60,302 nt of DNA from Candidatus Woesearchaeota archaeon (GTDB lineage Archaea > Nanobdellota > Nanobdellia > Woesearchaeales > ARS49). The notes under the pieces are model-generated. The model did no database searches. It saw only the letters and a list, made by a program, of their open reading frames with translations, and had not been told where the DNA came from. The position numbers were made by a program, and so were the translations under genes. The stretch spans positions 1-60,302 of the forward strand of contig JACQMY010000027.1 of the NCBI GenBank assembly GCA_016203305.1, given 5' to 3'. Below, piece by piece: positions 6,335-45,425 of the stretch (its first letter is position 1; every line of letters starts with the position of its first letter).

Positions 6335-6343
6335 GGCGAGGAC

Positions 6344-8441: not shown

Positions 8442-8544
8442 TAAGAAAATAGGCACTGATTCCAAGTTCACAGTCCACGTGCTTAAGGGAAGCGCACCAG
8501 ACCAATTTAGTCCTCCGGAGGCTTGAGCACCCCGTTATGGTTCT

Positions 8545-8607
8545 CACAAAAACGCTTGCGTTTTTGGGAGTTCCAGAAATCTTCGATTTCTGAGAACCTT
8601 CGGTTTT
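8545..8607. terminator. tandem A-tract/T-tract hairpins (putative bidirectional terminators)
   Basis: caaaaacg-cttg-cgtttttg, cagaaatc-ttc-gatttctg and aacc-ttcg-ggtt, lying between convergent genes. UUCG and CUUG loops. Confidence 0.5.
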
Positions 8608-8723
8608 GTAGCCTCAGCGGACACAACCGTTCGAAAAGGCAGCCTTATCGAACTATCCGTTTGAGCAGAATCAATAAGACTGTTTGAAAATACATCCTTC
8701 TTTAATGGTCTTAAATTGCTTTA

Positions 8724-9572
8724 TTATCGGATCCAGTATGAAAATCTTCCTTTCCAATTTACCCAATTATCTGGGAATGTTATTCTTTCAGCCTCAGGAA
8801 GAACGGTTTTTATGATTTCTAGCTTTTCGCCTGGCTCGATGGTTACAATGTTGGAGTGCAAATGCGTTAGACCACGATCTGCCATCTGTTGGCTCCATTG
8901 GTTGATTGTTGATGGTTCAAAGTCCCTCGCAAACTCAGCCACTGGTAACGGTCGTGAATACATGCTCATCATGATCACTTTTCTTGATTTAATGTGTTCT
9001 TCAAGAACACTTTCGAGCAGTGTTGTATTGTCAGTTCCTAAAGATAGTGAGTACATTTGCATTCTTCCTGTTGGTTCTAGAAACAACTCAGCTTGCCCAA
9101 GAATTCTTCTTGCAAGCGCAAGTCCATCATTTCCCCCATCTGTGTGCAGCGCGGCTTTCAGACCATAAGGCACAGGTACGAATGGAGGGTTGCAGATAAT
9201 GTAATCAAATTGTTCGCCTAGGACAGGATACCATAAATCACCCTGTCTGAATTCGATGTTTTTAGCATTGTTTCTTTTAGCATTCCTTTCAGCGAATTCC
9301 AATGCCCTTTGACTCATATCCGTAGCAATGACGTTTCTTGCTCTTTCGGCTGCAAAAATTCCTAGCACTCCGGACCCTGTACAAAGATCTAAAACCTTGT
9401 CACCTTTATGCACAATCATATGATCGATGAGATAATGAACACTGCTGCCGGGCCAGATAGGCAGAACATTGTCATAACGCTTATTGTCTTTTCTATCGGT
9501 TTCTATGCATTTTCCTCTGTAACAAAAGATTTCAGTAGTGTCTGTGCGTTCAATTTTTGGTGCTTCAAACAT
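8724..9572 (-). CDS. SAM-dependent methyltransferase with NPPF motif (HemK/PrmC-like or N6-adenine type)
   Basis: DLCTGSGVLG (motif I) and IICNPPFVP (motif IV). Confidence 0.7.
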   Translation of the reverse strand: MFEAPKIERTDTTEIFCYRGKCIETDRKDNKRYDNVLPIWPGSSVHYLIDHMIVHKGDKVLDLCTGSGVLGIFAAERARNVIATDMSQRALEFAERNAKRNNAKNIEFRQGDLWYPVLGEQFDYIICNPPFVPVPYGLKAALHTDGGNDGLALARRILGQAELFLEPTGRMQMYSLSLGTDNTTLLESVLEEHIKSRKVIMMSMYSRPLPVAEFARDFEPSTINQWSQQMADRGLTHLHSNIVTIEPGEKLEIIKTVLPEAERITFPDNWVNWKGRFSYWIR

Positions 9573-10224
9573 TTTTCTTTCTCCATATCATAAAGTTGCC
9601 CCACCCCTCACCATGCGTATCTTCGGGGGCATAATCTTTTTTTAACCAAAGCTCTTCAAAACCAAGTCTTGCGTATAACCTCATTAAACCATCAATGAAT
9701 TGGCCATCTTTCCTTCGAAGCCTAACATATTCTTCAGGAGTAACTCCTGAGTGCTGCCCTTGTGCGTAATCTGAACGAAGTCCTGCCACCCTGAAATCAA
9801 AATCATTCTGTTGCACAAAGTCTATTGTTGCTTGAATTAATCGCGAAGCAATTCTTCGACCCCTTTCTGAAACACCAATAGACATAACATAAAGGGCATT
9901 TCCTTCAGGATTGTGCCTGGTGCCAAATCCATATTCTTTGCCATCCTTTGCAACATCATAACCAATAGCCTCTTCGCGCGTTCTCGGCGGACTGCCAGGG
10001 TCAAAGTTGATTAAAAGGCCGGTAATGTATCCTTTGATCTCCTCGTTTTCTTCCGCGATCCAAAACAAATCACCAGGCTCTCTAAAGTAGCAATGTCTCA
10101 GGCGGTGTTCAAAAACTTCAATGGGCGCCACCCACCCTATCGGTCCGTACTCCGCGCTTTCTACTCTCATTATACCTGGCAAGTCTTCTGCCTTCGCATT
10201 CCGAATGTGAATACTTGTTTCCAT
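9565..10224 (-). CDS. GNAT-family N-acetyltransferase
   Basis: IRNAKAEDLPGI... and GVSERGRRIASRLIQ (acetyl-CoA binding R/Q-x-x-G-x-G/A-like motif). Overlaps the downstream gene by 8 nt. Confidence 0.7.
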   Translation of the reverse strand: METSIHIRNAKAEDLPGIMRVESAEYGPIGWVAPIEVFEHRLRHCYFREPGDLFWIAEENEEIKGYITGLLINFDPGSPPRTREEAIGYDVAKDGKEYGFGTRHNPEGNALYVMSIGVSERGRRIASRLIQATIDFVQQNDFDFRVAGLRSDYAQGQHSGVTPEEYVRLRRKDGQFIDGLMRLYARLGFEELWLKKDYAPEDTHGEGWGNFMIWRKKNV

Positions 10225-10331
10225 TTTACCACTAGAAGATAGAAGCGATTGGCGATCATCAAAAATTAACTCTCTCCACTAGCTGGAAAAAAGAAAACCT
10301 TATAATCGTTGGAAAGCTACAAACAGGATTT

Positions 10332-11111
10332 ATGGACACAGAACCATTGCGTCAAGCGGGTCTAACTGAGGGCGAGATTGCAGTTTACTTAGCGCTACTC
10401 AAGTTGGGTTTAAGCACAGCAGGCCCTATTGTCAAGGAAACAAAACTTCAAAGCTCAAGCGCATACCACATCCTAGACTCGCTTATTGAGAAAGGGATTA
10501 TTTCTTTTGAAATGAAGAACAAGCGCAAAAATTTCCATGCTGTTTCGCCAGAGCGCCTGATTGATTTCATCGAAGAAAAGAAAAAGAAGGTAGACGAAGA
10601 GAGACAACAAATAGAAAAAATACTTCCTTCACTTACCGCGCTGAAAGAACTGGCGCAAAAGCCAACGCAAGAAGTTCTCATTTTCGAAGGCTGGAACGGT
10701 GTTCTTTCAGCATTCAAAGAAGCCTATCGCCAGTTAAAACCAGGAACTACAGCATACGCGTACACTATTACAAAAGAATTTGGTGGCGCTGATCTGGATC
10801 AGGTCAGATGGCTAATTAACAAAATACGACAGCTTCGAGAGAATATGAACAAAAAGCTGAAACGAAAAATATTGATGAAAATCATCGCTGAAAGAGGCTC
10901 TGAAATTGGTAAAGATCAAGCTAAAACAAGCTTTACCCACGTGAAATTTATTGAGAAACATTACATAAACCCTGCTATCATAAATATTTATGGAGATGTC
11001 ACTTTAATTGCACTCTGGCTTCAAAAACCAATTGCATTCTACATCGTCAGCAAGGAAGTCGCGCAATCATTCAAAAACGATTTTGATCTGCTTTGGATCG
11101 TTGCTAAATGA
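10332..11111 (+). CDS. TrmB-family transcriptional regulator (third, divergent copy)
   Basis: LTEGEIAVYLALLKLGLSTAGPIVKETKLQSSSAYHILDSLIEKGI winged helix. TATA ccttataat about 28 nt upstream. Confidence 0.8.
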   Translation: MDTEPLRQAGLTEGEIAVYLALLKLGLSTAGPIVKETKLQSSSAYHILDSLIEKGIISFEMKNKRKNFHAVSPERLIDFIEEKKKKVDEERQQIEKILPSLTALKELAQKPTQEVLIFEGWNGVLSAFKEAYRQLKPGTTAYAYTITKEFGGADLDQVRWLINKIRQLRENMNKKLKRKILMKIIAERGSEIGKDQAKTSFTHVKFIEKHYINPAIINIYGDVTLIALWLQKPIAFYIVSKEVAQSFKNDFDLLWIVAK

Positions 11112-11344
11112 CTTCACGTTGTAGGACGGTCTTGCCTTATAGCGAGTTGAGTAAATGGTGGAACTTTTATGTGTTCCCTTGCGTGAACGATACGCACGCA
11201 ACTTGTTATCTGGGCAGTTGATGCAAAAGTTCCATAATTTCATCAGCTGCCTATAGTTCTTTGCCATTTTCTTTTGAGTATTTTTCTGGCGAGTTATTTT
11301 TTGACAAGAAGTCTTTTTATACTTGGGTTCTCATGTTATTGTGA

Positions 11345-11743
11345 ATGGTTGAGATCAATTATCCTGCGGTCGAGCACATCATTGAGTTTAATCACTTGGC
11401 TCTTGCGCTTGTTAAGGTAAAGAAGGCTGACAAGCCAGTGGTATTGAGCAAACCAAAGCTTCATGAGATTGTTGAGGAATGTGAGAAAGCGCAAGGGGAG
11501 GTTTATGATAAGGCAGTGGTTCTTTTGACCGGCATTATCAAGAAACACCCTTTTGCAAGCGGAAATCGTAGAACTGCTTTCCTTGTAATGGTAGATTTCT
11601 TGTTGGATAACAACGCTGCATGCGCTCTCAAAGACGACCCCGAAAACGCTCGCGTCTTGCCGGGGATACGTGAAGGCTTTTATACTAGTGAAGAAATCAA
11701 GGAGTGGATTAAACATGGCAAAATACACTCATTCAAAAGATAA
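11345..11743 (+). CDS. doc: Doc/Fic-family toxin (death-on-curing type)
   Basis: HPFASGNRRTAF matches the Doc variant of the Fic motif (HxFx[DN][AG]N[KR]R). Confidence 0.8.
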   Translation: MVEINYPAVEHIIEFNHLALALVKVKKADKPVVLSKPKLHEIVEECEKAQGEVYDKAVVLLTGIIKKHPFASGNRRTAFLVMVDFLLDNNAACALKDDPENARVLPGIREGFYTSEEIKEWIKHGKIHSFKR

Positions 11744-11837
11744 GAAAGTCTATGAAGCAGTTATTAGCGAGTTGGAGCACTTTCAAGAGCTCGTGAAACG
11801 TTATCCAAAGCTCCTCCGCGCAATCGGCGAGTTGTAA
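11715..11837 (+). CDS. 40-aa ORF overlapping the doc 3' end (speculative partner)
   Basis: Hand-translated as MAKYTHSKDKKVYEAVISELEHFQELVKRYPKLLRAIGEL*. Below the ORF-track length cut-off, and no homology is recognised. Confidence 0.2.
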   Translation: MAKYTHSKDKKVYEAVISELEHFQELVKRYPKLLRAIGEL

Positions 11838-11908
11838 GCGAAACATTATTATTCTTGTTCACTATTCCTAAGAAAAGATTCTCGTACCTCCAAAGTAAGC
11901 TGTTTGTG

Positions 11909-11960
11909 CCCTAAAAAATCTGCGGATTTTTGGGGCCCAGAAAACCAACGGTTTTCTTGA
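11909..11960. terminator. tandem A-tract/T-tract hairpins
   Basis: aaaaatc-tgcg-gattttt, then gggcccag plus agaaaacc-aac-ggttttct. This is the same stem and junction as at 2877-2903. Confidence 0.5.
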
Positions 11961-12039
11961 GCTTACGAAGAGGGTGCCGCCTCCCGCGTGAGTCTTGACA
12001 CCCTAAACTTTTATAATCTCTTCGTGTTCTTTTTCTTTT

Positions 12040-12980: not shown

Positions 12981-13088
12981 AAGGAGGAAGGTATACGGTG
13001 GAAGGGTGAAGAAATTTTATCATCGTTCTTCTACCTTCGTCCTTCCGCCTTCGTCCTACAACCTAATTCCTACAACCTTCTTCCCGTT
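12981..13088 (+). repeat. heptad array with inverted arm (hairpin)
   Basis: G-rich arm aaggagg|aaggtat|acggtgg|aagggtg (12981-13012), then ccttcgt|ccttccg|ccttcgt|cctacaa|cctaatt|cctacaa|ccttctt (13034-13082). Directly after the stop at 12969. Confidence 0.85.
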
Positions 13089-14933: not shown

Positions 14934-14964
14934 TTCTTCATCCTAATGCCTGCAACCTAAAACC
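14934..14964 (+). repeat. short heptad array
   Basis: ttcttca|tcctaat|gcctgca|acctaaa, between convergent trm5 and pan. Confidence 0.6.
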
Positions 14965-17371: not shown

Positions 17372-17491
17372 GACTACAAACTACACACTACAAACTAACG
17401 GCCAATAGCTAGGTTGAAGGTGTAAGGTTGAAGGGTGAAGATCTTCTGTCTTCGTCCTTCTCCCTTCCACCTTAGTCCTACATCCTACAAA
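17372..17491 (+). repeat. heptad array with inverted arm (hairpin)
   Basis: actacaa|actacac|actacaa|actaacg|gccaata, then the G-rich arm ggttgaaggtgtaaggttgaagggtgaag, then cttcgtccttctcccttccacc ... ctacaaa. Confidence 0.85.
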
Positions 17492-18484: not shown

Positions 18485-18942
18485 GGCTGCTTGAGGGTGC
18501 TGATCTTGAGACTGCAGTGAGTTGGATGGCTTTTGCGGCAGTCGAGGCCGAGGATTCTTCTTGCAGAAAGGCAAAGCGCGGTGTTGTTCTAGTTCGGGGG
18601 GGGGGTTGCTTATTGGGAAGGGTCATAACGCTCCTCCTTGTGGGTTTGCGTGTGAGCCAAGGTATTGTGAGCCTAGTTGTTCAGGTTATGCTGTGCATGC
18701 TGAGATGAATGCGCTTGCTGATGCTGTGCGTGGTGGGTGTGATGTTCGTGGTTCTACTATGTATCAGGTTCGTGTGGAGGATGGTGTTATACAGGATTCG
18801 CGTCCTCCTGTGTCCTGATTGTAGTAAGCACTTGTTGGCGTTTGGTGTTGCGTATTTTGTGTTGAAGCACGCTGCTGGTGTTACTGTTTATGATGTGAGC
18901 GAATTGCACGTGCTTGGCTTGGATAACGCGCGAAATAAATAA
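18481..18942 (+). pseudogene. dCMP/cytidine deaminase-family gene interrupted by two frameshifts
   Basis: Three frames join to give SSCRKAKRGVVLVRGG / LLIGKGHNAPP...HAEMNAL...SRPP / CPDCSKHLL (HAExNA and PCxxC zinc motifs). The breaks are at the G10 run (18596-18605) and at about 18810. ATGA overlap with rfcS. Confidence 0.75.
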
Positions 18943-18946
18943 TCGT

Positions 18947-19040
18947 CTACACACTACCAACAGCCTTCGTCCTAATGCCCAACGCCTACTACCTACGCAC
19001 TACTTACTACAAACTATCTTCATCCTACGTTCTAACCTAT
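18947..19040 (+). repeat. heptad array
   Basis: ctacacactaccaacagccttcgtcctaatgcccaacgcctactacctacgcactacttactacaaactatcttcatcctacg, between convergent genes. Confidence 0.8.
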
Positions 19041-19978: not shown

Positions 19979-20046
19979 TGTTTCCTCTTTTATGTGTTCT
20001 TCAGAATACTGTTTTTATAAACTTTGTGTCGTACAGTACGCGGGGA

Positions 20047-20090
20047 GTCTTCATTCCTCCGCCTTCTTCCTACAGCCTAGCGCCTACTTA
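20047..20090 (+). repeat. heptad array
   Basis: tcttcattcctccgccttcttcctacagcctagcgcctactta, between two minus-strand genes. C-rich on +. Confidence 0.75.
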
Positions 20091-21032: not shown

Positions 21033-21074
21033 TGAACTCTTTTTAAATACTTTTTGGTGTGTTGTGGCCCACTG

Positions 21075-21156
21075 TCTTCATTCTTCCGCCTTATTCCTTC
21101 GTCCTATATCCTAATGCCTACAACCTAAAGCTAACAGCTAATAGCCAACAACTAAC
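21075..21156 (+). repeat. heptad array
   Basis: cttcattcttccgccttattccttcgtcctatatcctaatgcctacaacctaaagctaacagctaatagccaacaactaac. Overlaps the stop of 21152..22078. Confidence 0.8.
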
Positions 21157-22078
21157 ATGGTGGTTGTCCCGGCAGCCTTGTTATAGTGACTGGCAGTACT
21201 GCTGTGTTCATGTATCCGTAGTCGAGTTGTACTTCTAGGATTGTGCTGAACGTGCCTTCGAGTTGGCCGTAGCTTTTGCCTGCTCTGCAGACTATTCGTG
21301 TTTCCTTGCCTTCTTCTAGGCGTGCTTGTCTTGGTGTGCAATCTAGTTGTTCGTCTTGTAGTTGTACGTTTACGTCTACTCTGCTTTCTAGTGTTGCTGT
21401 TTCTGATGTTCCGCATGCTGCTTCTACTGCGTCCTGGCTTATTGCTCTTCCGTTGCCGAGGTTTTGTACGTATATGACGAATGTTGGCTTTACGTTTGGC
21501 CCGTCTGGTGTCATGCTTGGCTCGACGCGTGTTACTGCTACTGGTGCTCCCTGTCCTCCGCCGAGTGAGGTTAGTTGTGCTCTGCAGGTTTTTTGCGGGT
21601 TTAGATTGCGCAGGTCTGGGTCTATGCATACTGGCACGCCTGCGTACGTTTCGTAGTCATAGCATGCTTGGAAAATGACTGGGGTGTCGTATACTTCTAG
21701 TTGGCTTGGCAGCCCTGGATTTCTTACTTTTAGTGCTACTTGTTGTATTCCTCCTGTTGGGTTGTATTGGCTTTTTCCTTCTAGGTTGAATGTTTTTTGG
21801 CGTTCTCTTTTTTGTGTTGGCTGTATCACTTGGTCTTCCAAAATAAAACTATACACGCCGTTTTCTATGTCTGCTGTTCCGAGATTTTTTAGCATTAGTA
21901 ATAGGTCTGCTTCTTGGCACATGTAGATGTTGTTCATGCTTGTTGGTTGAAATCTTGCGTCTAGTGCTTGTGTTCCTGTTGCTATGTATGGTGGCATTTG
22001 TGTTTGTTGTCCGAATTGGAACTGGCATGCCGCGAGGAGTAACAAGCTAATTGCCAAAAGCCAAACGCCGTTCTTCAT
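21152..22078 (-). CDS. secreted lipobox protein, paralog family member 3
   Basis: Signal peptide ending LLAAC. Conserved FQACYDYETYAGVPVCID, GGQGAPVAVTRV and IYVQNLGNG. Confidence 0.75.
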   Translation of the reverse strand: MKNGVWLLAISLLLLAACQFQFGQQTQMPPYIATGTQALDARFQPTSMNNIYMCQEADLLLMLKNLGTADIENGVYSFILEDQVIQPTQKRERQKTFNLEGKSQYNPTGGIQQVALKVRNPGLPSQLEVYDTPVIFQACYDYETYAGVPVCIDPDLRNLNPQKTCRAQLTSLGGGQGAPVAVTRVEPSMTPDGPNVKPTFVIYVQNLGNGRAISQDAVEAACGTSETATLESRVDVNVQLQDEQLDCTPRQARLEEGKETRIVCRAGKSYGQLEGTFSTILEVQLDYGYMNTAVLPVTITRLPGQPPC

Positions 22079-22236
22079 CCTTCCACCTTCGTCCTACAAT
22101 CACTAGCTTTTAGCCTTTGGCCTTTAGCCGTTAGTACTAATAGCCAACAGCCAATTGCTAATAGCCAAAAGCCTACATCCTTCGTCCTAACGCCTAATGC
22201 CCAACGCCTAATGCCTACTTCCTTCACCCTTTGGCT
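22079..22236 (+). repeat. heptad array (about 22 units)
   Basis: ccttcca|ccttcgt|cctacaa|tcactag|cttttag|cctttgg|cctttag|ccgttag|tactaat|agccaac|agccaat|tgctaat|agccaaa|agcctac|... Starts immediately after the ATG of 21152..22078. Confidence 0.88.
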
Positions 22237-23966: not shown

Positions 23967-25127
23967 TCATTCCGCCTTGATGGTAAGTTTGACGATGTTG
24001 AGCTCGGTGAATGGTTTGATTTCTACGTAGTTGTTTCCTTCTCTGACGAGTGTGGTGATGTCTTTTTCGTATTCTGGGTCTATTTGGTTGATTGCGTCAA
24101 ACTTTCCGTTTACGTTGAGTTGTGCTTGTTTTTTCTCTCCGTCGTCTACGAATTCCATGCGGAGTATGACTCTGAAATCTCTGTCTAGGATGTCGTCATA
24201 TAGTTCGCTTTTTAGTGTGAAATAGTCTATGTAGCTTTTGACTGGTTTCAGGATGGTGCGTACTCTGATGTTTTCAAATCTGTAACTTCCCTTGGTGATT
24301 TTGAAAGTGAGTGTGTTTTTGCTTTCTCTTAGGTCTTCTTTGTACAGGTCTTGTCTGTTTATGCTGTCGCAGCTTGGTGTTGAGCTGTAGACTGCTTTTC
24401 CGTTTAGTTCTATGGTGACTGGTCCTACGTCTTGTTGTTCGCATATTGCGTAGAAGTCTAGGAATGCGTTGTCTAGATGGTCTTTTTCGCTTTCTGATAT
24501 TGTGAATGTGCTGCTGCTTGTTTGTCGTTCTGTTTCAACTAGCTCGCCTACTACTTTGATGTCTGTTAGTGCGTATTTTTTCTTGCTGAAGAATCCTCCT
24601 GTGACGCTGAATTCTAGTTGGTTTGTGCTTCTCAGTAATTGTTTTGGTAGTATTACTGGTGGCGGATTCTGTACTGGTATGTATCCTTGGAATATTGGTT
24701 GTCCGTTTAGTGTTATTATTAGTTCTCCTGCGCGTTCTAGTGTTTGGAAGCTTAGCATGATGTTTTCTGTTTTTTCTGGCTCGTGTAGCGTGAAGGTCAT
24801 TGTTTTTTGTTGTCCGCTGAACCATCCTGTTGAGACTGTGAATGGGTTTTCTTGTGCCAGGACTGCTGCTTGTTTGCTTTCTGCTAGGTAGATGTTGGCT
24901 AGTTCGTGGTCGTTTACTGCTCTTTCTGTGAATTCTAGTCTTCCTGGTGATTCGTCAAGCAGTATGCGTTCTTCGAGTGAGGTTGCATTTTCTCCTTCTA
25001 GGAGTGCTCGTCTTTCTTCTGCCGGCAGAAATAGTATGTATCCGATGAAGAGTAGTGTTATGATGCCGATGAGTGCTACTGCTGGACTTCCGCTTTGGAT
25101 TGGGCTCTTGCCGCGCTTATTCATCAT
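23967..25127 (-). CDS. N-terminally anchored secreted protein (possible class III signal peptide)
   Basis: MMNKRGKSPIQSGSPAVALIGIITLLFIGYILF. It has the same MNKRG start as pilin-like genes at 50894 and 55126. It is the first gene of the minus-strand operon. Confidence 0.7.
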   Translation of the reverse strand: MMNKRGKSPIQSGSPAVALIGIITLLFIGYILFLPAEERRALLEGENATSLEERILLDESPGRLEFTERAVNDHELANIYLAESKQAAVLAQENPFTVSTGWFSGQQKTMTFTLHEPEKTENIMLSFQTLERAGELIITLNGQPIFQGYIPVQNPPPVILPKQLLRSTNQLEFSVTGGFFSKKKYALTDIKVVGELVETERQTSSSTFTISESEKDHLDNAFLDFYAICEQQDVGPVTIELNGKAVYSSTPSCDSINRQDLYKEDLRESKNTLTFKITKGSYRFENIRVRTILKPVKSYIDYFTLKSELYDDILDRDFRVILRMEFVDDGEKKQAQLNVNGKFDAINQIDPEYEKDITTLVREGNNYVEIKPFTELNIVKLTIKAE

Positions 25128-25196
25128 TCACCTTTTTTAAGATGGTGCTTCTTCAGAGCGAATAGTATTTAAATGTTTTTACCTGTCAGTATGCTG

Positions 25197-25262
25197 AGTT
25201 AGTAGTGTGTAGTCAGTAGTTAGTAGATTTCTACAAACCACACACTACAAACTACACACTAA
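25197..25262 (+). repeat. heptad array with inverted arm
   Basis: gttagtagtgtgtagtcagtagttagtag, then ctacaaaccacacactacaaactacacacta. Lies in a divergent promoter region. Confidence 0.8.
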
Positions 25263-25263
25263 T

Positions 25264-26307
25264 ATGAAAATATTGGAGAAGAACTTGAGGCAGGGGGAGG
25301 TCAAGGTACTTGTTGAGTCTCCTGAGGATGTTTGGTTTTTGTCTCAGCTGATTGACTCGGGAGATATAATTAAGGGTAAAACTTTTCGTAAGATGAAGGT
25401 TTCTGAGGAGGCTGATGCGACTAAGCGTGCTGTTTTCATGGCTGTGCGTGCTGAGAAGGTTGAATACTTGCCTGGTATGTTGAGGATTAATGGCAAGGTT
25501 GTTGATGGTCCTGAGGATGTTGCAAGGGGCAGCTATCATACTTTTGCTGTTGAGCAGGGCTTGTCTTTTTCTATTGTTAAGGAGCATTGGCTTGGCTTTC
25601 AGTTGGATCGTTTGCAGGAGGCTGCAGAGCAGCGAAAGGCGAAAATTTTGATTTGTGTTTTTGATCGTGAGGAGGCGTTTTTTGCTTTGTTGAAGGCTTC
25701 CGGTGTTGAGCTGCTCTCACACATTCAGGGTGATGTTGAGCGGAAGCGTGTTCAGACTTCTTCAAAAGTTAATTTTTTTGAACAGGTTGTCAAGCAGATT
25801 CAAGATTATGATGTTCGTTTTGAGTGTGATGCTGTTGTTGTGGCGTCTCCTGCTTTTTGGAAGGAGGAATTGTTGAAGGTTGTCAAGGATGACAAGTTGA
25901 GGAGGAAGCTTGTTCTTGCTTCTTGTTCTTCTGTTGATGAGGGCGCTATTGATGAGGTGCTTAAACGAGACGAGGTGCGTTCTGCTTTGCGGCAGGAGCG
26001 TACTTCGCGTGAGATGCTTTTGGTCGACCAGGTGTTGGGCGAGATTGCAAAAAAGGGTCCTGTTGTTTATGGTTTAAAACAGACAGAGACTGCTGCGTCT
26101 GCTGGCGCGATTTCTACTTTGCTCGTTACCGACAGTTTGATTTCTAAGCTTCGGGAACGGAATGAGTTTGCTCAGGTTGATGCTATAATGCGCCTGGTTG
26201 ACAGGCAGAAGGGGAAGGTTGTTATTGTTTCTCATGAGCATGCTGGTGGCAAGCGTCTTGATGGCTTGGGCGGCATTGCTGCTTTGTTGCGTTACCGTCT
26301 TGAATAG
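25264..26307 (+). CDS. pelA: Pelota (Dom34 homolog, mRNA surveillance)
   Basis: MKILEKNLRQGEVKVLVESPEDVWFLSQLI..., with three eRF1-like domains. 347 aa. Confidence 0.9.
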   Translation: MKILEKNLRQGEVKVLVESPEDVWFLSQLIDSGDIIKGKTFRKMKVSEEADATKRAVFMAVRAEKVEYLPGMLRINGKVVDGPEDVARGSYHTFAVEQGLSFSIVKEHWLGFQLDRLQEAAEQRKAKILICVFDREEAFFALLKASGVELLSHIQGDVERKRVQTSSKVNFFEQVVKQIQDYDVRFECDAVVVASPAFWKEELLKVVKDDKLRRKLVLASCSSVDEGAIDEVLKRDEVRSALRQERTSREMLLVDQVLGEIAKKGPVVYGLKQTETAASAGAISTLLVTDSLISKLRERNEFAQVDAIMRLVDRQKGKVVIVSHEHAGGKRLDGLGGIAALLRYRLE

Positions 26308-26464
26308 CAACCTACAAACTACCTTCGTCCTTCTTCCTTCCGCCTTCGTCCTAATACCTACAACCTTCCTCCTTCACCCTTCGTCCTAATACCTTCTCCC
26401 TTCATCCTACAACCTAATACCTTCAAACTACACACTACTAACTACTAACTACAAACAACTAACC
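26308..26464 (+). repeat. heptad array (20 units in perfect register from 26322)
   Basis: ccttcgt|ccttctt|ccttccg|ccttcgt|cctaata|cctacaa|ccttcct|ccttcac|ccttcgt|cctaata|ccttctc|ccttcat|cctacaa|cctaata|ccttcaa|actacac|actacta|actacta|actacaa|acaacta. Confidence 0.92.
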
Positions 26465-26504
26465 ATGAAGAACGCATCAAAATGACGATGTTTGAGTTGC
26501 TAAA

Positions 26505-26704
26505 TGTTTAAATAACACTGGGCGTTGTTAAAAATCTAACTCCGGAGTAGTAATTCCCCGCTGGAGTTGCGTGCAATGATGGGTTCACCAACAGGTGGGA
26601 ACCAAAAAGTTTTAATACCTGATTGGTTACCTCATGCGAATAACAAAAACGTGTTACGGAAATGTCGGAGTGACGTTTCCGTCGTGAAAAAGGGGGGAGG
26701 GTAA
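26505..26704 (+). promoter_or_regulatory. TATA box plus about 160-nt structured leader (three hairpins) upstream of the TrmB paralog 2 gene
   Basis: TATA tgtttaaataa (26505-26515). Hairpins at 26538-26568 (aactccgg/ctggagtt), 26581-26603 (ggttcacc/ggtgggaacc) and 26657-26681 (cggaaatgtc/gacgtttccg with one G-U pair). SD ggggggaggg at 26692-26701. Confidence 0.35.
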
Positions 26705-27511
26705 ATGATAGTCAAAGATGATTTTTTGAGTAAGCTGCGCCGGTATTTTGTTTTGAACTTGTATGAAGTGAAGATTTGGACTGCGTTGTTGTCACGAGGC
26801 GTGGCAACAGCAGGCGAGTTGTCTGATATTGCGAACGTTCCTCGCAGTAGGAGTTATGATGTTCTTGAAAGTTTGGAAAGAAAGGGCTTTGTCATTATGA
26901 AGTTGGGCAAGCCGATTAAATACATCGCCGTTCCTCCGCAGGAAGTTTTGGAGCGTGTGAAGAAGAATTTGAGCGAGGAAGCTTCCGAGCGTGTCAAGCG
27001 TTTGGAAGAGCTGAAGACAACTGATGTGCTTGAAGAGCTTAACTCTTTGCACACGCAGGGTATTGAGTTGGTCGAGCCTTCTGAGCTGTCTGGCAGTTTG
27101 CGTGGCCGTCATAATTTGTACTCGCATTTGGAGCTTGCCATTCGTAATGCTCAGCAGAGTGTTACGTTGATGACAACTTCTCAGGGCTTGTTGCGTAAGG
27201 TTGAGGGTTTCAAGCCATTGTTTGAGAAGTTGAAGAAGCGTGGCGTGAAGGTTCGCATTGCTGCTCCTTTGACTAAGGACTCCAAGGACGCGATTAAGGA
27301 TCTTGGTGATGTTGCCGAGCTTCGTCATAGCGAGGGCAAGGCGCGTTTCTGCATCGTTGATGGCAAGGAGCTTGTCTTCATGATTATGGACGATGCTAAT
27401 GTGCACCCGACTTATGATGTTGGCATTTGGGTTAACACGCCGTTTTTCGCGTCTGCATTGGAGAACATGTTCAATGTTGCGTGGAAGTCTATGAAGCCAG
27501 CAGGCAAGTAG
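26705..27511 (+). CDS. TrmB-family transcriptional regulator (paralog 2)
   Basis: A 63-aa stretch (WTALLSRG...LERVKK) is identical to the protein encoded at 184..969. The C-terminal domains have diverged. Confidence 0.88.
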   Translation: MIVKDDFLSKLRRYFVLNLYEVKIWTALLSRGVATAGELSDIANVPRSRSYDVLESLERKGFVIMKLGKPIKYIAVPPQEVLERVKKNLSEEASERVKRLEELKTTDVLEELNSLHTQGIELVEPSELSGSLRGRHNLYSHLELAIRNAQQSVTLMTTSQGLLRKVEGFKPLFEKLKKRGVKVRIAAPLTKDSKDAIKDLGDVAELRHSEGKARFCIVDGKELVFMIMDDANVHPTYDVGIWVNTPFFASALENMFNVAWKSMKPAGK

Positions 27512-31298: not shown

Positions 31299-32105
31299 TT
31301 ATAAAGGTTGCGGCCTCGGGGGTCGAGGGGGACGGGGGTTAAGTCCCCCTCGCGCGTAATCTCTGCTGTTTGCAAGGTTTTCTGGAGCGTGGCCAACGAA
31401 TGTTCGAATGTCGCATTGTTTGGCCTGTTTTCTCAACTGTTCAACTTCTTCCGTTCTTAGTTTTCTCCAGGTTCCTTTGGCTAGCGTGCTTAGTGCTAGG
31501 CTTGCTATTTTTGTTCTTACTAGCCTGTTTACGTGGTATCCTAGTGATAGGAACAGTTCTCTTACTATGTGTTTTCTTCCTTCGTGTATTGTTATTGTTG
31601 CGCTTTTTCCGCTTGTTGTTATGTTGTGTATTGTTACTGCCTTGCCGTCTATTGGCACTCCTTCTGTGATTTTTTCTATGTCTTTTATTGTGAGTGGCTT
31701 GTCGAGTGTTGCTCTGTATTCTTTGTGTATGTTGTATCTTGGGTGTGTTAGTTGGTTTGCAAAGTTTCCGTCGTTTGTGAACAGCAATAGTCCTTCTGTG
31801 TTTTTGTCTAGTCTTCCTATTGGGTAGATTTTTGGTTTTCTGGGCACTAGTTGCATTACGGTTTTCATGTCATGTGTTTCGTGTGTTGTTGTTACGTATC
31901 CTGTTGGCTTGTTGAGCATGATGTATGTTTTTTCTTCTAGTGCAATTGGTTTTCCGTCGATTAGTATCTTGTCTGTTTGTTCTGCGTTGTCTCCTAGTTT
32001 TACGATTTTTCCGTTTACTGTTACTCTTCCTTCTTTGATTAACTCTTCTGCTTTTCTTCGTGATGCTATTCCTGCTGCTGACATTATTTTTTGTATTCGT
32101 TCCAT
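31299..32105 (-). CDS. RsuA/RluB-family pseudouridine synthase with S4 domain
   Basis: S4: IASRRKAEELIKEGRVTVNG. Catalytic GRLDKNTEGLLLFTNDG. Pro/Arg-rich tail. A 9-bp GC hairpin (31325-31351) lies within the tail-coding region. Confidence 0.85.
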   Translation of the reverse strand: MERIQKIMSAAGIASRRKAEELIKEGRVTVNGKIVKLGDNAEQTDKILIDGKPIALEEKTYIMLNKPTGYVTTTHETHDMKTVMQLVPRKPKIYPIGRLDKNTEGLLLFTNDGNFANQLTHPRYNIHKEYRATLDKPLTIKDIEKITEGVPIDGKAVTIHNITTSGKSATITIHEGRKHIVRELFLSLGYHVNRLVRTKIASLALSTLAKGTWRKLRTEEVEQLRKQAKQCDIRTFVGHAPENLANSRDYARGGLNPRPPRPPRPQPL

Positions 32106-32248
32106 TCTTCCGCCTTCGTCCTACTGCACGAGTTTGTAGCTTGTAGTCGGTAGTGCGTAGTACTACAAACTACTTACTACAACCTACTCCCTACGTCCTT
32201 CTACCGTCATCCTAATTCCTAAAACCTAATACCTACAACCTATATCCT
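32104..32248 (+). repeat. composite heptad array with inverted arm
   Basis: Contains the 60-nt block 32113-32172, which recurs at 32838-32904. Confidence 0.85.
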
Positions 32249-32828: not shown

Positions 32829-32925
32829 TTCCTACATCCTTCGTCCTACAGCACGAGTTTGTAGCTTGTAGTAAGTAGTCGGTAGTGCGTAGTACTACAA
32901 ACTATCTTCACCCTTCATCCTAATA
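32829..32925 (+). repeat. composite heptad array with inverted arm
   Basis: The 67-nt block 32838-32904 equals the 32113-32172 block plus one extra heptad (aagtagt). Overlaps the stop of 32920..33360. Confidence 0.85.
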
Positions 32926-40400: not shown

Positions 40401-42632
40401 CCTGGTGTTATTTCTGAGAGGTTCTTTCCTGATCAGGAATTGTTTGTGGCTGCTTTGAAGGTTCAGTTGGACAAGCCTGGGTTTTGTAAGTTTTCGCGTT
40501 CTGTGAGCACGTTTGAGGCTATGGAGGGGGTTTTCCCTGGGTTTGATCTTGCTCCTAAGGTTACTTTGTCTGCTGAGGTGAATGTTTCTTCGCAGAGTTC
40601 CTTTACTTATTATGTTGCGTGTAAGGGTAAAAACCAATTAGTTTCTGAGCCTGTTCAGATCAAGTTTGGTGTTGACTTGTCCCGGCCGCTTTCTGTTTCT
40701 AGCAGCACTCCTTTTGGGTCTAGGACTACTAACTTTACTGTTGGCGTTTTTGCTAATAAGCGGGTGTTTTGTTATGTTGGTGAGCGGGAGAATGATGCTA
40801 CGAAATGTATGGGTGCGTGCAGGAGTGCGTATTCTCAGGCGCAGGAGCAGGAAGTTTCTGGTGAGGGGAATTATACTTATTTCGTGCAGTGTGCTCATGC
40901 TTCTGGTGAGAAGTCTGATGTGTTGCGTATTCCTGTTTTGGTTGATACTTCTGTTCCTGAGATGGAGTACGTGACTGATGATAGTGCTTTGGAGGATGTG
41001 GAGGTTTCTTGGAGTTTGCGTAAGTTGCGTGTTGCGTTCAAGGGCAATGATGCTGAGAGTGGCATTGATCATTATCTTGTTTCTTTGCGTAATTTGCAGT
41101 CTAAGCGGCTTGTGTTCAAGGATATGGTGGTGAACGTTACTCATGGTCAGCCGTTTTACGTGTCAACTAATGAGAACGGCACTCCTTTGAGGTTGGCTAA
41201 TGGTGATCATTACCAATTCATAGTTAAGGCTGTAAACAGGGTTGGTCAGGAAAGTGCTGCTTTGGAGAGTGATGGTGTTGCTATTGATTCTTCGCAGCAG
41301 CCTGATGATTGTGCGAATGGTGACTTGGATGGTGAGGAGTCTGATGTTGATTGTGGTGGTGCGTGTAATCCGTGCGAGTCTGGCTTGCGTTGTGCTTTGG
41401 ATAGGGATTGTGTGACTAATTATTGTAATGCTCGTGTTTGTGAGCTTGCGAAGTGTACTGATGGTGCTATGAATGGTTTGGAGTCTGATGTTGATTGTGG
41501 TGGTAAGTTTTGTCCGAAGTGTGGTGAGGAGAAATCGTGTATTGTGGAGAGTGATTGTGATACTGATTATTGTGATCCTGTGAGGAAGTTGTGTGCTGTT
41601 GCTCCTCCTTGTGCTGACAAGGCCGCTTCTCCCGGTGAGACTGATGTTGATTGTGGTGGTCCTTGTACTCCTTGTGTTGAGGGTAAGGGTTGTCTGGAGC
41701 ATACTGATTGCGCCTCTGGTTTGAGTTGTGATCCTGAGACTAAGGCTTGTTCGACTAAGAAGGTTGGCGATGATGATGCGGATGGTGTTTTGGACGATAA
41801 GGATAAGTGTCCAGGCACGCCTGTTGAGGAGTCTGCTGATGAGTCTGGTTGTGGTTTGAGTCAACTGTTTAGTGTTGGTGATGATATTAATGATAAGTGG
41901 CGTATGGACTTTTTCGGCTGTATTGATTGTCCTGAGGCTGCTGCTGATGGTGACTTTGATGGTGATGGCTTGGTGAACTTGCGCGAGTTTGAGCTTTCTT
42001 CTAATCCGAAGTTGAGGGATAGTGATGGTGATGGCTGGCGTGATGGTCTTGAGGTGGAAAAAGGGACTAATGTTTTGGATCCTTCAAGTCATCCGCCTAG
42101 TGCTTTCAAGGCTTTGTTGTGGTTGTTGCTTGGTGTTTTGGTGTTTGGTAGTGTTGCGTATGGTGGTTTCTTGTTGTCTAAGATGAGGCGTGAGGTTGAG
42201 CGTGTTGAGGAGCGTGTTGAGAGGCGTGAGGAAGCTCGGCGTGTGGAGACTTTGCGTGTTGATGAGCTTGAGCATTTGCGTTCTTTTGCTCATAAGGTTG
42301 AGCTTCCTGAGAAGGACTGGGTTTCTTTGGAGCGCGAGATTAAGAAAAAGCCTTTGCCTAAGAAGCGCTTTAGGGAGGAGTTGGAGCGTTTGCGTCGTAT
42401 TGCTCGTCGTGAGACTGTCGGAACTCCTTTGGAGCGTTTGCGTTCTGTTCTTGGTGACTTGTCTGAGCGTGAGCGTAGGGAGTTGGAGCGTAAGTTGGAG
42501 ATGTTTAAGCGTGGCGAGCTTCCGAGGGAGGAGGCTGATGTGTTGTTTAAGAAGTTGCAGGTTACGGCTGAGTATTATAAGACGCATCGTGAGGAGTTTG
42601 AGCGGGAGTTGAGGCGTTATGGCAAACGATAG
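37482..42632 (+). CDS. giant (1716 aa) membrane-anchored surface protein with Cys-rich modules and Ca-binding-type repeats
   Basis: Signal peptide (LILITLVLVFVLAMPVLAQE; alternative start at ATG 37566). CGDGICQANENALSCSADC module. Three tandem E(S/T)DVDCGG.C..C modules. DxDxDG thrombospondin-type-3-like repeats. TM helix LLWLLLGVLVFGSVAYGGFLL. Arg/Glu coiled-coil cytoplasmic tail. Confidence 0.85.
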   Translation: MRIANLINFGRNFVRFAILAERTIFSPLMRSDRSSLILITLVLVFVLAMPVLAQERGCCCDPVVKNGSIQTREDCDRQKFIFAGFPGFKTCSDHCNATLGKIAVGFCGDGICQANENALSCSADCAPLQAGCGSPTFRPAPRDLTVVPVRGEKAFALSFSIPCPVDFLSISRCKGLGCGDFSKIADIAPATSFNDEDESLLFATDYTYSVVAHYRQVGDSEPGVASGNLGDLECWKQLESSFCISPFFYERFRSYLLSNGYAQYDAADFASQFDRFVELAFGGRFNRAWRCNGNVLVGPQVSCEGDQVCRADERGANCMSREDCGGGDPFGLYSAVSGCEGVLPRYCFFDKSATVQDKCYDCDPRMSCYDYKSSGACQRDNCGVGECEWRSTFSDVGAGVCIDKKKSNCAFCDKRGTDGVGNIDAFSALWDSCREEKSSALSTNLFPCFFDKELRISKSCDEASCSDYTRLQCGSPGAITLNPDNSLATFSTDPCGIRVCQFDAVSGCAKKADGRSSFRDCKFGNKSCERDYFAPVTTLIPFGVGGRIDGLNVRIFDKVSKLVAPRDFAGQTGYKTFLCVKSASNDCRDAAAFPILTTATQLLLKNRFLKDVKDGKARTLAQLEVGNNTIAFYSRDPASNLEVVKESVVVACDACQGPTLVNASVSGGRFLGGEFFTSATIPTFTLEFDEPTLITYAELRSELGNVPLAQVSQGVVTSHQFVASQALRGNYSFGVNGKNVQGVFVNNTGLSYLVVVDPSLADVRISPPDGSILNKTSIDIVLEFSRPVTLSRIQIVLESFSDPFVKRQISRDITDLFKVDNNNRTFTASVTNLTGGGMHTIVVDALGFNGLPIFKQSSVFIATLKPNLRLSQPAFGVTPYVSFDAVVESPLPSVCAYVFNTPTAPSSQDFDFFKKFSGEMYLHSASGLQIGDPAQEVFLLHAYCRLNLFGLVNRTFPISFDPEPPFIVKSWAEPGVISERFFPDQELFVAALKVQLDKPGFCKFSRSVSTFEAMEGVFPGFDLAPKVTLSAEVNVSSQSSFTYYVACKGKNQLVSEPVQIKFGVDLSRPLSVSSSTPFGSRTTNFTVGVFANKRVFCYVGERENDATKCMGACRSAYSQAQEQEVSGEGNYTYFVQCAHASGEKSDVLRIPVLVDTSVPEMEYVTDDSALEDVEVSWSLRKLRVAFKGNDAESGIDHYLVSLRNLQSKRLVFKDMVVNVTHGQPFYVSTNENGTPLRLANGDHYQFIVKAVNRVGQESAALESDGVAIDSSQQPDDCANGDLDGEESDVDCGGACNPCESGLRCALDRDCVTNYCNARVCELAKCTDGAMNGLESDVDCGGKFCPKCGEEKSCIVESDCDTDYCDPVRKLCAVAPPCADKAASPGETDVDCGGPCTPCVEGKGCLEHTDCASGLSCDPETKACSTKKVGDDDADGVLDDKDKCPGTPVEESADESGCGLSQLFSVGDDINDKWRMDFFGCIDCPEAAADGDFDGDGLVNLREFELSSNPKLRDSDGDGWRDGLEVEKGTNVLDPSSHPPSAFKALLWLLLGVLVFGSVAYGGFLLSKMRREVERVEERVERREEARRVETLRVDELEHLRSFAHKVELPEKDWVSLEREIKKKPLPKKRFREELERLRRIARRETVGTPLERLRSVLGDLSERERRELERKLEMFKRGELPREEADVLFKKLQVTAEYYKTHREEFERELRRYGKR

Positions 42633-44188: not shown

Positions 44189-44766
44189 TGGCGCGGCTTC
44201 TTCGTCCTACTTCCTACAACCTAACGCCTTCGTCCTTCGTCCTTCATCCTACGCCCTACTACCTTCGTCCTACAAACTACAAACTACGAACTGCAAAGGG
44301 CCAGGTTAAGATGTTCGAGACCGTGGGAGTGTTGGTCGTGTTTTTCTTTTTGCTTATTTCCGGTTCTGTGTTTTATTTTGGTGCGCAGAAGTCTTCTTTG
44401 CAGAAGGAGAAGGTTAAGGCTTCTGAGCAGCAGGCGTTGCAGGTTGTTTTGAAGGCTTTGTACTTGCCTGAGCTTGATTGTTCTTTTTTGAAGGCTCAGC
44501 GTGAGAATTGTATTGATAAGTTGAAATTGCGGCATGTTGCTGCTTTGATGCGTAATGAGTCTGTGTTTTCTAATTATTATCCTGAGTTTGGCTACGCGAC
44601 TATTCGCGTGCAGGAGTTGTATCCTGCTGGCGAGTCTGTTGATGTTTATGTTCGTAAGGCTGAGGAGTATTCTTCTATTTTGGTTACTCAGAGTCCGATT
44701 TTGTTGTACGATCCTGTGAGGGAGACTTATGGTTTTGGTGTTATTGAGGTGGCTGCTTATGTCTAG
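44188..44766 (+). CDS. pilin-like protein whose predicted leader is encoded by a heptad array
   Basis: TGATG coupling at 44186-44190. The leader MARLLRPTSYNLTPSSFVLHPTPYYLRPTNYKLRTAKGQ precedes VKMFETVGVLVVFFFLLISG. The only alternative start, ATG 44311, would remove the KGQ motif. Confidence 0.55.
   Translation: MARLLRPTSYNLTPSSFVLHPTPYYLRPTNYKLRTAKGQVKMFETVGVLVVFFFLLISGSVFYFGAQKSSLQKEKVKASEQQALQVVLKALYLPELDCSFLKAQRENCIDKLKLRHVAALMRNESVFSNYYPEFGYATIRVQELYPAGESVDVYVRKAEEYSSILVTQSPILLYDPVRETYGFGVIEVAAYV
44197..44292 (+). repeat. heptad array (inside the 5' end of ORF 44188..44766)
   Basis: cttcttcgtcctacttcctacaacctaacgccttcgtccttcgtccttcatcctacgccctactaccttcgtcctacaaactacaaactac. Confidence 0.85.
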
Positions 44767-45310: not shown

Positions 45311-45326
45311 TCGAGGGCAAAGGCAG

Positions 45327-45425
45327 CAGGTGTAAGGGTGAAGAACGCACTATTCTTCCTTCACCCTTCGTCCTAACACCTACGTCCTTCCGCCTTCATC
45401 CTACAACCCTACACACTACAAACTA
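45327..45425 (+). repeat. heptad array with inverted arm (hairpin after the operon end)
   Basis: aagggtgaag ... cttcaccctt forms a 10-bp stem, followed by cgtcctaacacctacgtccttccgccttcatcctacaaccctacacactacaaacta. Confidence 0.85.

Follow-up and report, generated by a model that had tools for sequence, protein, structure and literature searches.

Heptamer arrays in the spacers of a woesearchaeal genome

We analyse a stretch of 60,302 nucleotides (nt) from a Candidatus Woesearchaeota archaeon (GenBank assembly GCA_016203305.1, contig JACQMY010000027.1), referred to throughout as the window, in which arrays of degenerate 7-nt units occupy many of the spacers between genes. The genes include pelota, whose product shares at most 67% identity with proteins from Woesearchaeota metagenome-assembled genomes, as well as those for FEN-1, RFC, PAN, PheRS, RPA, Hjc, a tRNA splicing endonuclease and ribosomal protein L34e; a tRNA scan of the window returned none. 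The division into coding and intergenic DNA follows a gene map that we built with strand-specific codon models and then curated. The window represents 60 kb of the host genome, and a sister lineage with arrays of its own is represented by about 42 kb.

The array of central interest lies at 26308-26464 (+), where it starts at the stop codon of pelota and runs through 20 or more heptads, with words of the CCTTC, CCTAA and CCTAC classes followed by an ACTAC block. The first-pass annotation, made from the letters of the window alone, had read this stretch as 20 consecutive, nearly G-free 7-mers and had seen the same grammar in 20 other regions. Both observations hold: 26322-26461 (+) consists of 20 in-register heptamers with a G count of 4 in 140 nt, and Tandem Repeats Finder (TRF) and a separate lag-7 scan both recover essentially all of the other regions. 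Even the shortest arrays (14934-14964 and 20047-20090, about four units each) are picked up by TRF or by a repeat search.

The periodicity belongs to the spacers. In intergenic DNA the identity at lag 7 is 0.365, compared with 0.268 ± 0.005 (maximum 0.282) in 200 within-spacer shuffles, and harmonics appear at lags 14, 21 and 28; in coding DNA the same lag analysis finds period 3 as the sole periodic signal. The sharp intergenic peak that the first-pass annotation had named as support for its reading is present, and the arrays are, as it remarked, non-coding in their period. Explicit patterns behave in the same way: (CCTN4)x5+CCT has 41 matches and CCTTCNNCCTTCNNCCTN4CCTN4CCT has 25, every one of them on the + strand, with an expectation of 0 for each. 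Scanning with a position weight matrix (PWM) of the unit, and defining a run as at least four good units, we find 28 runs of the C-form on + (204 units) and 5 on - (20 units). All 33 runs are extragenic, one of them falling only within an over-extended open reading frame (ORF) call. Arrays are found in 20 of the 49 spacers of at least 30 nt, in addition to one short 4-unit array, and their summed length of 2322 nt amounts to 3.9% of the whole window, or 28% of what is intergenic.

Assemblers can collapse or expand repeats of this kind, and the array lengths given here are assembly values. We nevertheless give almost no credence to the arrays being an assembly or sequencing artefact. A contig from an independent Logan assembly (SRR12113383, 2133 nt) is 100% identical to 24749-26881 across two arrays, the one after pelota included, which makes an assembler artefact unlikely. 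Moreover, arrays are placed precisely between ORFs at 20 loci, and both an independent genome of the sister lineage and a Joint Genome Institute (JGI) contig carry arrays in syntenic spacers.

A fixed core and a variable tail

An iteratively refined profile over about 275 chained units gives the consensus (C/A)-C-T-(A/T)-(C/A)-N-N. Position 1 is mostly C (0.69, with A 0.16 and T 0.12), position 2 is C (0.99), position 3 is T (0.88), position 4 is A or T (0.55 and 0.43) and position 5 is C or A (0.70 and 0.25), while positions 6-7 are near random at about 0.1 bit. The little G that occurs is found in the tail: in 215 units taken from runs of at least four units, 75 of 77 G occurrences fall at positions 6-7. 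The arrays as a whole have, on the + strand, A 0.25, C 0.35, G 0.10 and T 0.29.

The earlier description of fixed heads and varying tails needs a correction, in that the tails do not vary freely: core and tail share 0.74 bit of mutual information, compared with 0.21 ± 0.04 after permutation. Because of this correlation we treat the units as discrete words. About 17 words are common, namely CCTTCGT, CCTAATA, ACTACAA, CCTTCAT, CCTACAA, CCTTCCG and about ten others, with ACTAC words standing in blocks of their own and CCTTC, CCTAA and CCTAC words intermingled. Within an array the units are not near-identical, the TRF period-7 matches ranging from 61 to 88%.

Orientation follows the chromosome strand

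The net polarity of the arrays is + in 20 of 20 array-bearing spacers. The C-form lies on + even in the spacers between minus-strand genes (3535-3694, 19979-20087, 21033-21151 and 22079-22235), and it does so in convergent spacers as well, which shows that orientation tracks the chromosome strand and not transcription. Two of the roles floated in the first-pass annotation, a polarity signal and a landing pad for a binding protein, keep a place on this account, since the orientation is strictly chromosome-strand specific.

With respect to genes, a typical array begins at the stop codon of the preceding gene and reaches the TATA box of the following one. These TATA boxes, of the form TTTAAATA or TTTATAxx, precede the ATG by about 25-35 nt, and judging by the usual promoter geometry of archaea most mRNAs would be leaderless or short-leadered. 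Most arrays, being 5' of the TATA box of the next gene, would therefore fall outside its short-leader mRNA. Divergent spacers that hold only promoters lack an array in 6 of 8 cases. At three starts (25264, 44311 and 44828) the array abuts the start with no TATA box between. Stops close the reading frames of 19 of 20 arrays in the minus sense and of 8 of 20 in the plus sense, and this last count means that an insulator with stops in all frames is no general rule. With no run of T or A above 4 in any array, a role as oligo-T terminator is rejected as well.

These positions bear directly on the idea that the arrays act as RNA, which we regard as quite improbable: as unstructured G-poor leaders or 3' untranslated regions that load ribosomes without a Shine-Dalgarno (SD) sequence, in the manner of CA-rich enhancers, as SD/anti-SD-like sponges, or as mRNA-stabilising 3' hairpins. 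Such roles would suit the unidirectional arrays, which are predicted to be wholly unstructured, the three abutted starts, and the hairpin modules that come after stop codons of plus-strand genes; a translational role has also been proposed for the TAACTGA repeats of Beggiatoaceae, which sit just 5' of start codons (PMC4679880). They sit badly with the many arrays that end at or before the next TATA box, with the absence of any Rfam family match, and with the lack of T or A runs above 4, hence of oligo-U terminators. Transcripts of minus-strand genes would carry the opposite, purine-rich sense, so that one RNA-level role cannot fit both cases. The SD/anti-SD reading of the first-pass annotation, in particular, does not survive: the 2.3 kb of arrays contain CCTCC 2 times and GGAGG once as compared with 77 occurrences of CCTTC, and most arrays lie 5' of TATA boxes. 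RNA-level roles fit a few arrays (the three that abut starts, and the 3' hairpins) and not the whole family.

The strand that carries the C-form is itself unusual. At four-fold degenerate sites of + strand genes the sense composition is T 0.67, G 0.18, C 0.09 and A 0.05, and at those of - strand genes it is T 0.04, G 0.10, C 0.20 and A 0.67. Read on +, four-fold sites come to about T 0.67, G 0.19, C 0.09 and A 0.05. The + strand is thus about 67% T and 4-5% A whichever way the gene points, which makes this an effect of the chromosome strand and not of transcription. A skew in this direction would be expected if + were often single-stranded and so exposed to C>T and A>G deamination, and the arrays are enriched in C and A, the two bases depleted on + at four-fold sites. 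A whole-chromosome G/C strand disparity has been described for Microgenomates of the Candidate Phyla Radiation (CPR) and tentatively ascribed to unidirectional replication (PMC7143001). That case is alike in being a tiny-genome, uncultured lineage whose strands differ drastically irrespective of gene orientation. It differs in that G/C alone is affected (30% vs 15%), with no A/T disparity and no arrays reported, whereas in the window both G/C and A/T are skewed. For DPANN, our literature search found nothing comparable to this strand disparity.

One could see the arrays as cis-acting, strand-specific signals of a highly asymmetric DPANN replication, marking direction every 1-3 kb, a proposal that we consider improbable. 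Under it the + strand appears to be long single-stranded, like the mitochondrial H strand, which would give its 67% T and 5% A, and the arrays may be read by a single-strand-binding or priming factor, or else as polar double-stranded signals in the style of KOPS or Ter by a translocase or fork barrier.

Two segments of the window, 5900-11350 and 48750-49850, have atypical skew and codon usage and are free of arrays. They encode ArsR, SHOCT proteins, methyltransferases, GNAT, a third TrmB paralogue, Fic and a nucleotidyltransferase pair, and are likely to be recently acquired DNA. If they are recent, their lack of arrays fits with arrays being a resident feature that accumulates slowly.

Hairpin modules and higher-order repeats

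The five reversed runs are 4-unit arms immediately 5' of a C-form run, with which they form hairpins (z down to -5.2). Five loci (12982, 17411, 45314, 50076 and 50171) preserve the sequence of this module, with z from -3.2 to -5.2, and at least 15 arrays have no hairpin. Unidirectional arrays have no predicted structure on either strand; for the 140-nt array after pelota the minimum free energy is -0.1 and -0.6 kcal/mol on its two strands. With both strands at about 0 kcal/mol, the classical hairpin-based model of orientation-dependent expansion finds no support. In Rfam 15 nothing reaches the gathering score, and permissive thresholds add no family either, one hit on a hairpin (E 0.09) being due to chance.

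Repetition also occurs above the level of the single unit. TRF reports periods of 14, 21, 28 and 35 nt in addition to 7. At 50027-50216 there is a 95-nt tandem block whose copies are 96% identical, and a 67-nt module is found on both sides of the RNase P p30 gene at 81% identity, one copy having one 7-nt unit extra. The junction ACTACAAACTATCTTC is repeated at four loci, which together with the hairpin module at five loci indicates copying between spacers.

Copying of this sort raises the possibility that the arrays are dispersed non-autonomous mobile elements, or elements similar to REP/BIME, in which the hairpin module serves as recognition structure and a single-strand transposase of the IS200/IS605 or RAYT type, encoded elsewhere in the genome, inserts copies into the lagging-strand template, which would explain the uniform orientation. 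The conserved module at five loci, the junction sequences common to four, the 67-nt direct repeat on either side of the p30 gene and the strand-specific orientation all speak for it, as do the arrays between minus-strand genes, which do not abut a promoter and so were probably copied in. Yet we see neither defined ends nor target duplications or terminal repeats, length and word order differ at every locus, the hairpin is absent from most arrays, and at least two arrays grew from resident promoter-proximal sequence. A Pfam scan of the roughly 60 ORFs of the window found no transposase, HUH or Cas protein apart from a Cas4/PD-(D/E)XK-type nuclease, so that the 60 kb hold no transposase or HUH protein to move such an element. 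On this evidence we give mobility a slender chance. That the arrays are not an obvious miniature inverted-repeat transposable element, as had been stated at first pass, agrees with the lack of terminal inverted repeats and of a transposase among the roughly 60 proteins; that they are not a CRISPR array follows from units that are 7 nt long and contiguous, with no spacers. The nuclease is the sole CRISPR-related gene and lies in a conserved housekeeping neighbourhood.

Three long non-coding stretches (2675-3021, 8442-8723 and 11744-12039) have other repeats in common, namely families of short hairpins (GAAAAYC-N4-GRTTTTC, GGGCCCAG…) together with GC-rich palindromes. They have no tRNA or Rfam match and may represent a structured RNA of a new type or a further repeat family.

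Relatives with and without arrays

At the syntenic loci of four relatives (L001, L003, L006 and L153) the spacers are compact, typically 30-100 nt, and contain no period-7 arrays. The skew there is opposite or weak at the same gene orientation. Of all the relatives compared (these four, L152 and L155), three show the opposite sign over the syntenic genes, while the sign agrees with that of the window in one, where G is 0.48. The sister lineage, comprising L152 (GCA_003599055.1) and L155 (the JGI contig), has 52% GC and a skew of the same sign as the window. Its 42 kb contain seven arrays, all with the A/C-rich form on +, made of words that fit C-(T/C)-(G/A)-A-(C/T)-(A/T)-A. Among the words are CTGATAA, equivalent to TAACTGA after a shift of register, CTGACAA, CCAATAA and, from a CTACNAA class, CTACAAA. 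Five of the seven lie in spacers that also hold an array in the window: PRC>RFC, the convergent spacer at RFC, downstream of pelota, upstream of RPA, and SET>YdjM. Three of the seven come after strong oligo-T tracts, and these are therefore probably beyond the terminator. A neighbour-joining tree built from five housekeeping proteins pairs the window with L152, the two being about 30% apart, and places the other four lineages in a tight cluster; compositional convergence could contribute to the pairing. A metagenome scan with the exact 18-mer CCTTCCGCCTTCGTCCTA found 23 loci, none of them like this organism.

The relatives also reveal where the arrays have been inserted and from what they have grown. 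The two genes around the array at 22072-22236 overlap by 4 nt in 5 of 5 relatives, whereas the window has 157 nt between them, all of it array. At pelota the promoter (CGAATAsTATTTAAATGTTTTTAC) is conserved and the distance from promoter to ATG is about 23 nt in relatives; in the window it is about 65 nt longer, and the alignment identifies these extra nucleotides as an inverted ACTAC module found in the window alone. Arrays that appear where the genes of relatives overlap, or between a promoter and its ATG, are easier to understand as tolerated expansion than as design. Upstream of RPA the last units of the array align to promoter-proximal TTCCTAYCACCTAAAWTC-TTATAAA of L159 and L157, and ACAAAC-TTTTTTATAC before RFC is common to the window and its relatives. 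As the ends of these two arrays match promoter-proximal sequence of relatives, we conclude that arrays grew outward from resident seeds. Finally, the sister words CCAATAA, CCGATAA and CTGATAA form a series of A>G and C>T steps, the changes favoured on that strand, from which it appears that words drift and are then re-amplified.

Slippage, drive or a reader

Our preferred reading, which we hold at about even confidence, takes the arrays for a mosaic satellite of heptanucleotides, specific to its lineage, driven by slippage and evolving in concert, of the same class as the long heptameric simple sequence repeats (SSRs) of bacteria. It starts from the observations above on period, grammar and polarity, on location and distribution among lineages, and on duplicated blocks and homologous seeds, to which it would add slippage and gene conversion as the engine, with no dedicated function.

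In the scheme that we envisage, short C/A-rich seeds at promoters and stop codons would expand by slipped-strand mispairing, either by 7 nt at a time or by blocks of several units (14-35 nt, in one case 95 nt). Blocks would then be copied from spacer to spacer, giving concerted evolution of the family. Units with the common core (C/A)CT(A/T)(C/A) could realign and be amplified again as their two tail positions drift, in which case the core would be kept by molecular drive and not by protein recognition. A single orientation would survive, with the C/A-rich, G-poor strand of the array on the chromosome strand that is G/T-rich elsewhere, a polarity that would be fixed in the DNA itself, through stability that depends on the replication strand or through descent without inversion, and not by transcription. 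The product would be a structure-free, terminator-free filler that moves genes apart, co-opted locally as 3' hairpins, operon spacers and a 5' leader.

A simple slippage microsatellite had been set aside in the first-pass annotation because the units are not identical copies. The imperfection of the units stands, but to exclude slippage is too strong, for the 14-35 nt periods, the 95-nt duplication, the 7-nt indel and the extension of seeds all indicate slippage of single units and of multi-unit blocks. Evidence for the 7-nt step itself consists of one 7-nt indel between two 67-nt copies together with the multi-unit TRF periods, the second assembly being identical.

Several observations weigh against this preferred reading. 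Positions 2 and 3 of the unit (C 99%, T 88%) are near-invariant over about 275 units, and the core avoids G, 75 of 77 G occurrences in 215 units lying outside it. The four-fold sites, with C at 0.09 and A at 0.05 compared with 0.35 and 0.25 in the arrays, point to a strong C>T and A>G pressure on this strand, which drive alone would have to outrun. Arrays occupy five syntenic spacers in two lineages whose housekeeping proteins are about 30% apart, and both lineages keep the anti-skew composition despite different words. Polarity is perfect over 20 spacers, and neither strand of a unidirectional array folds (about 0 kcal/mol). All of this, moreover, is drawn from 60 kb of the host genome and about 42 kb of the sister lineage.

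Much of the same evidence can be turned towards a reader. In that case the arrays would be cooperative platforms for a sequence-specific nucleic-acid-binding protein that reads the 5-nt core every 7 nt, either on double-stranded DNA, in the style of the omega repressor, or on the + strand when it is single-stranded and exposed in replication; their polarity would then be a signal for replication, segregation or fork direction, or would serve to protect or prime the exposed strand. We think this unlikely, though it keeps some weight. In its favour, conservation is position-specific, with near-invariant core positions and variable tails, the composition is kept against mutation bias in both array-bearing lineages, and polarity holds regardless of gene direction, including in the four spacers between minus-strand genes. 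The arrays sit between stop codon and TATA box (with three of the seven sister arrays after oligo-T tracts), direct and inverted arrangements stand side by side, and array positions are retained across lineages. However, we found no candidate protein, and the two lineages use different words (CCTTC/CCTAA/ACTAC and CTGAYAA/CCAAYAA), so a reader would have to co-evolve with them or be tolerant. The insertions in an operon junction and a 5' leader look opportunistic, four relatives do without arrays, and a 7-bp register is by itself no proof of binding. That the + strand is the lagging-strand template is, for its part, deduced solely from the usual sign of the skew.

The arrays along the window

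We now go through the individual arrays, all of which are assigned to +. The array at 3611-3700 lies between two minus-strand genes, those for a TFE-like protein (3226-3534) and Hjc (3695-4087). At 12981-13088 the hairpin module (a 4-unit GAAGG-type arm, a loop and a CCTTC arm; z -3.6) is followed by a C-form run that ends 14 nt 5' of the FEN-1 start. A short array of 4 units occupies the convergent spacer at 14934-14964. That at 17372-17491 is composed of an ACTAC block, a reversed 4-unit arm (17411-17441) and a C-form run (z -4.4), and its end is the TATA box of RFC; L152 has a syntenic array. The next, at 18947-19040, is in a convergent spacer and has its syntenic L152 counterpart at 4081-4145. 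At 18522-18946 there is a truncated ORF resembling dCMP/cytidine deaminases, in which HAEMNA is present and PCxxC absent (Pfam E 3e-4, below the cut-off); followed as it is by non-coding-looking sequence, it is probably a decaying gene. Three arrays then have minus-strand genes on both sides: the short one at 20047-20090, that at 21068-21156, and that at 22072-22236, which fills the 157-nt spacer described above.

Around pelota, the inverted ACTAC-type module between the conserved promoter and the ATG is at 25197-25263 (z -2.35), and the array after the stop codon is the one with which we began, in a spacer where the sister lineage has an array too. Further on, at 26505-26704, about 190 nt of conserved and structured-looking sequence separate a TATA box from the strong SD of TrmB-pheS-pheT. 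This sequence is present in all relatives (L001 11100-11311, L003, L006, L152 11190-11373 and L153), has no Rfam match, and contains the conserved blocks AATTCCCC, GTTTTAATA, TTACCTCA.GYGAATAACAAAAA.GTGTTACGG and AAAAGGGGGGAGG; the PheRS operon may have in it a leader or a regulatory RNA. Two TrmB-family genes match over 239 nt at 78% identity (221-459 and 26745-26983), which indicates a paralogous duplication; the third TrmB paralogue is at 10332-11111.

The two copies of the 67-nt module flank the p30 gene at 32104-32248, where the array includes a reversed TTGTAGT-type arm and the 67-nt core recurs at 32838, and at 32829-32925, which holds the second copy at 81% identity, the one with the extra 7-nt unit. 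Between these and the next array, at 41299-41672, three 74-nt repeats code for a Cys-rich motif (…SDVDCGG…C.P) in a protein of about 1700 residues with no Pfam match, probably a surface protein with repeated domains. The array at 44197-44292 is within an apparent operon, and the next ATG has no TATA box before it; that at 44770-44819 is an ACTACNN array immediately 5' of the next start codon. At 45314-45425 a hairpin module and a C-form run (z -5.2) stand in a convergent spacer.

At 48085-48200 an ACTAC block, the conserved junction ACTATCTTC, and CCTTC and CCTAA blocks follow one another up to the TATA box of an Lrp/AsnC gene. The largest composite, 49984-50250, consists of an ACTAC block followed by 2.3 copies of the 95-nt unit (array plus hairpin module; 96% identity, z -3.2). 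An ACTAC block, GCCAA words and a long CCTTC block make up 53150-53281, with a TATA box at the end. The array at 56463-56553 is 5' of the TATA box of the RPA gene and has a syntenic array in L155. Two arrays surround YdjM: that at 58846-58952 is 5' of the gene and corresponds to the syntenic L155 array at 11454-11569, and that at 59466-59645 is 3' of it; the YdjM ORF call (58872-59459) is over-extended, as the Pfam domain begins at residue 42. The last array, at 59862-59925, has about eight units of the GCCAAxx type in frame inside a small conserved ORF (59813-60205); TRF places it at 59867-59922. It is translated (…NSQQANSQELIANSQQLT…) as part of the variable N-terminal part of the small protein, and the L155 orthologue is without it. 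The same ORF has a conserved leader of about 100 nt (59665-59812) in common with L155, L159 and L160.

Comparison with known systems

Heptamers are reported to be the most over-represented class of long SSR in prokaryotes, mostly intergenic and with polymerase slippage proposed as their origin (Mrazek et al. 2007, as summarised in PMC4679880 and PMC4692102). In bacteria they are sometimes mixed and sometimes inverted (PMC4679880, PMC4692102), and individual cases include three tandem heptanucleotides in Calothrix (as cited in PMC4692102), TAACTGA repeats in Beggiatoaceae, Cyanobacteria and Bacteroidetes (MacGregor 2015, PMC4679880), and GGGAATC heptamers in Xanthomonas and GGGGAYT in Nostoc (PMC4692102). 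A 19-base degenerate heptad pattern, which we ran against a collection holding a single genome for each species, gave at least 88 records, mostly of filamentous cyanobacteria with near-perfect heptamers; none of the 88 records listed is archaeal, from which absence from other archaea does not follow. Among the matches listed (L015, L037, L042, L102 and others), bacterial arrays of (CCTTCAT)n, (CCTTCTG)n and similar units often have a reverse-complement array directly 5', which indicates that the inverted-array, long-hairpin layout is widespread (Chloroflexota, Verrucomicrobiota, Acidobacteriota, cyanobacteria).

The window arrays resemble these bacterial long SSRs (LSSRs) and short tandemly repeated repetitive sequences (STRRs) closely. 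Both consist of tandem 7-nt units, are strongly intergenic and lineage-specific, and invite slippage as an explanation; both are occasionally mixed with related heptamers and occasionally have an inverted, hairpin-forming partner array. Like the bacterial repeats, the window arrays are longer than chance. What sets them apart is that they are archaeal (DPANN) and combine, in place of near-perfect copies, about 17 related words in a mosaic built on one fixed 5-nt core, that their density is very high (20 of 49 spacers, 3.9% of the DNA), and that their orientation is uniform and opposite to an extreme compositional skew.

The TAACTGA repeats (PMC4679880) are likewise intergenic heptamer arrays with no predicted structure and with stops in several frames, and in Microcystis sets between stop codons share one chromosomal orientation. 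The sister lineage uses the word itself, (T/C/A)AACTGA being CTGAYAA in the other register. TAACTGA is not among the words of the window, which has CCTTCNN, CCTAANN, CCTACNN and ACTACNN instead, and whereas the TAACTGA repeats lie 1 nt before the start codon, most window arrays are 5' of the TATA box in an orientation independent of the downstream gene. The G-rich heptamers of Xanthomonas and Nostoc (PMC4692102) are alike in being intergenic and over-represented, in varying in length and sequence between close relatives, and in having some inverted pairs; unlike the window arrays, whose purine strand has at most GG and which are predicted to be structure-free, they can form G-quadruplexes.

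Two further systems share parts of this architecture. Enterobacterial REP/BIME elements are palindromes of about 35 nt in alternating orientation and are linked to RAYT transposases. Like the window arrays they are short modules in variable order, in spacers at the 3' ends of genes, with some hairpins, but the units in the window are 7-nt tandems, and RAYT was not seen in the 60 kb. In the omega repressor/parS system of plasmid pSM19035, 7-10 contiguous 7-bp heptads at three promoters, direct and inverted and 5' of the promoters, are read by a ribbon-helix-helix protein that polymerises on the DNA in a 7-bp register. The likeness, at the level of sequence, is in contiguous 7-bp units, direct and inverted, next to promoters; the window differs in having 4-20 units at 20 chromosomal spacers, with uniform polarity and no candidate reader.

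Heptamer arrays have been known in cyanobacteria since 1990, and their origin and function are unexplained. The archaeal case offers a strict strand polarity uncoupled from transcription, a 5-nt core with two further positions, and a measurable mutation pressure that the arrays resist, which would make the choices between drive and selection, and between a link to replication and one to transcription, directly testable given a closed genome, read-level variation and strand-specific RNA data. Should a protein or the replisome read the arrays, archaea would have in them a polar chromosomal signal of a new kind. If they are not read, they show how fast non-coding DNA inflates even in a streamlined DPANN genome, an inflation that in the window reaches an operon junction, a 5' leader and a coding region.

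The first-pass annotation knew of no described archaeal element with this architecture. For archaea this stands within the literature that we searched, where no heptamer arrays are described for archaea or DPANN (absence of evidence only), but close bacterial analogues do exist (PMC4679880, PMC4692102). The kind of element is known from bacteria; what is new is the mosaic grammar of core and tail, the density, the strict strand polarity that does not depend on transcription, and a host genome of extreme strand asymmetry.

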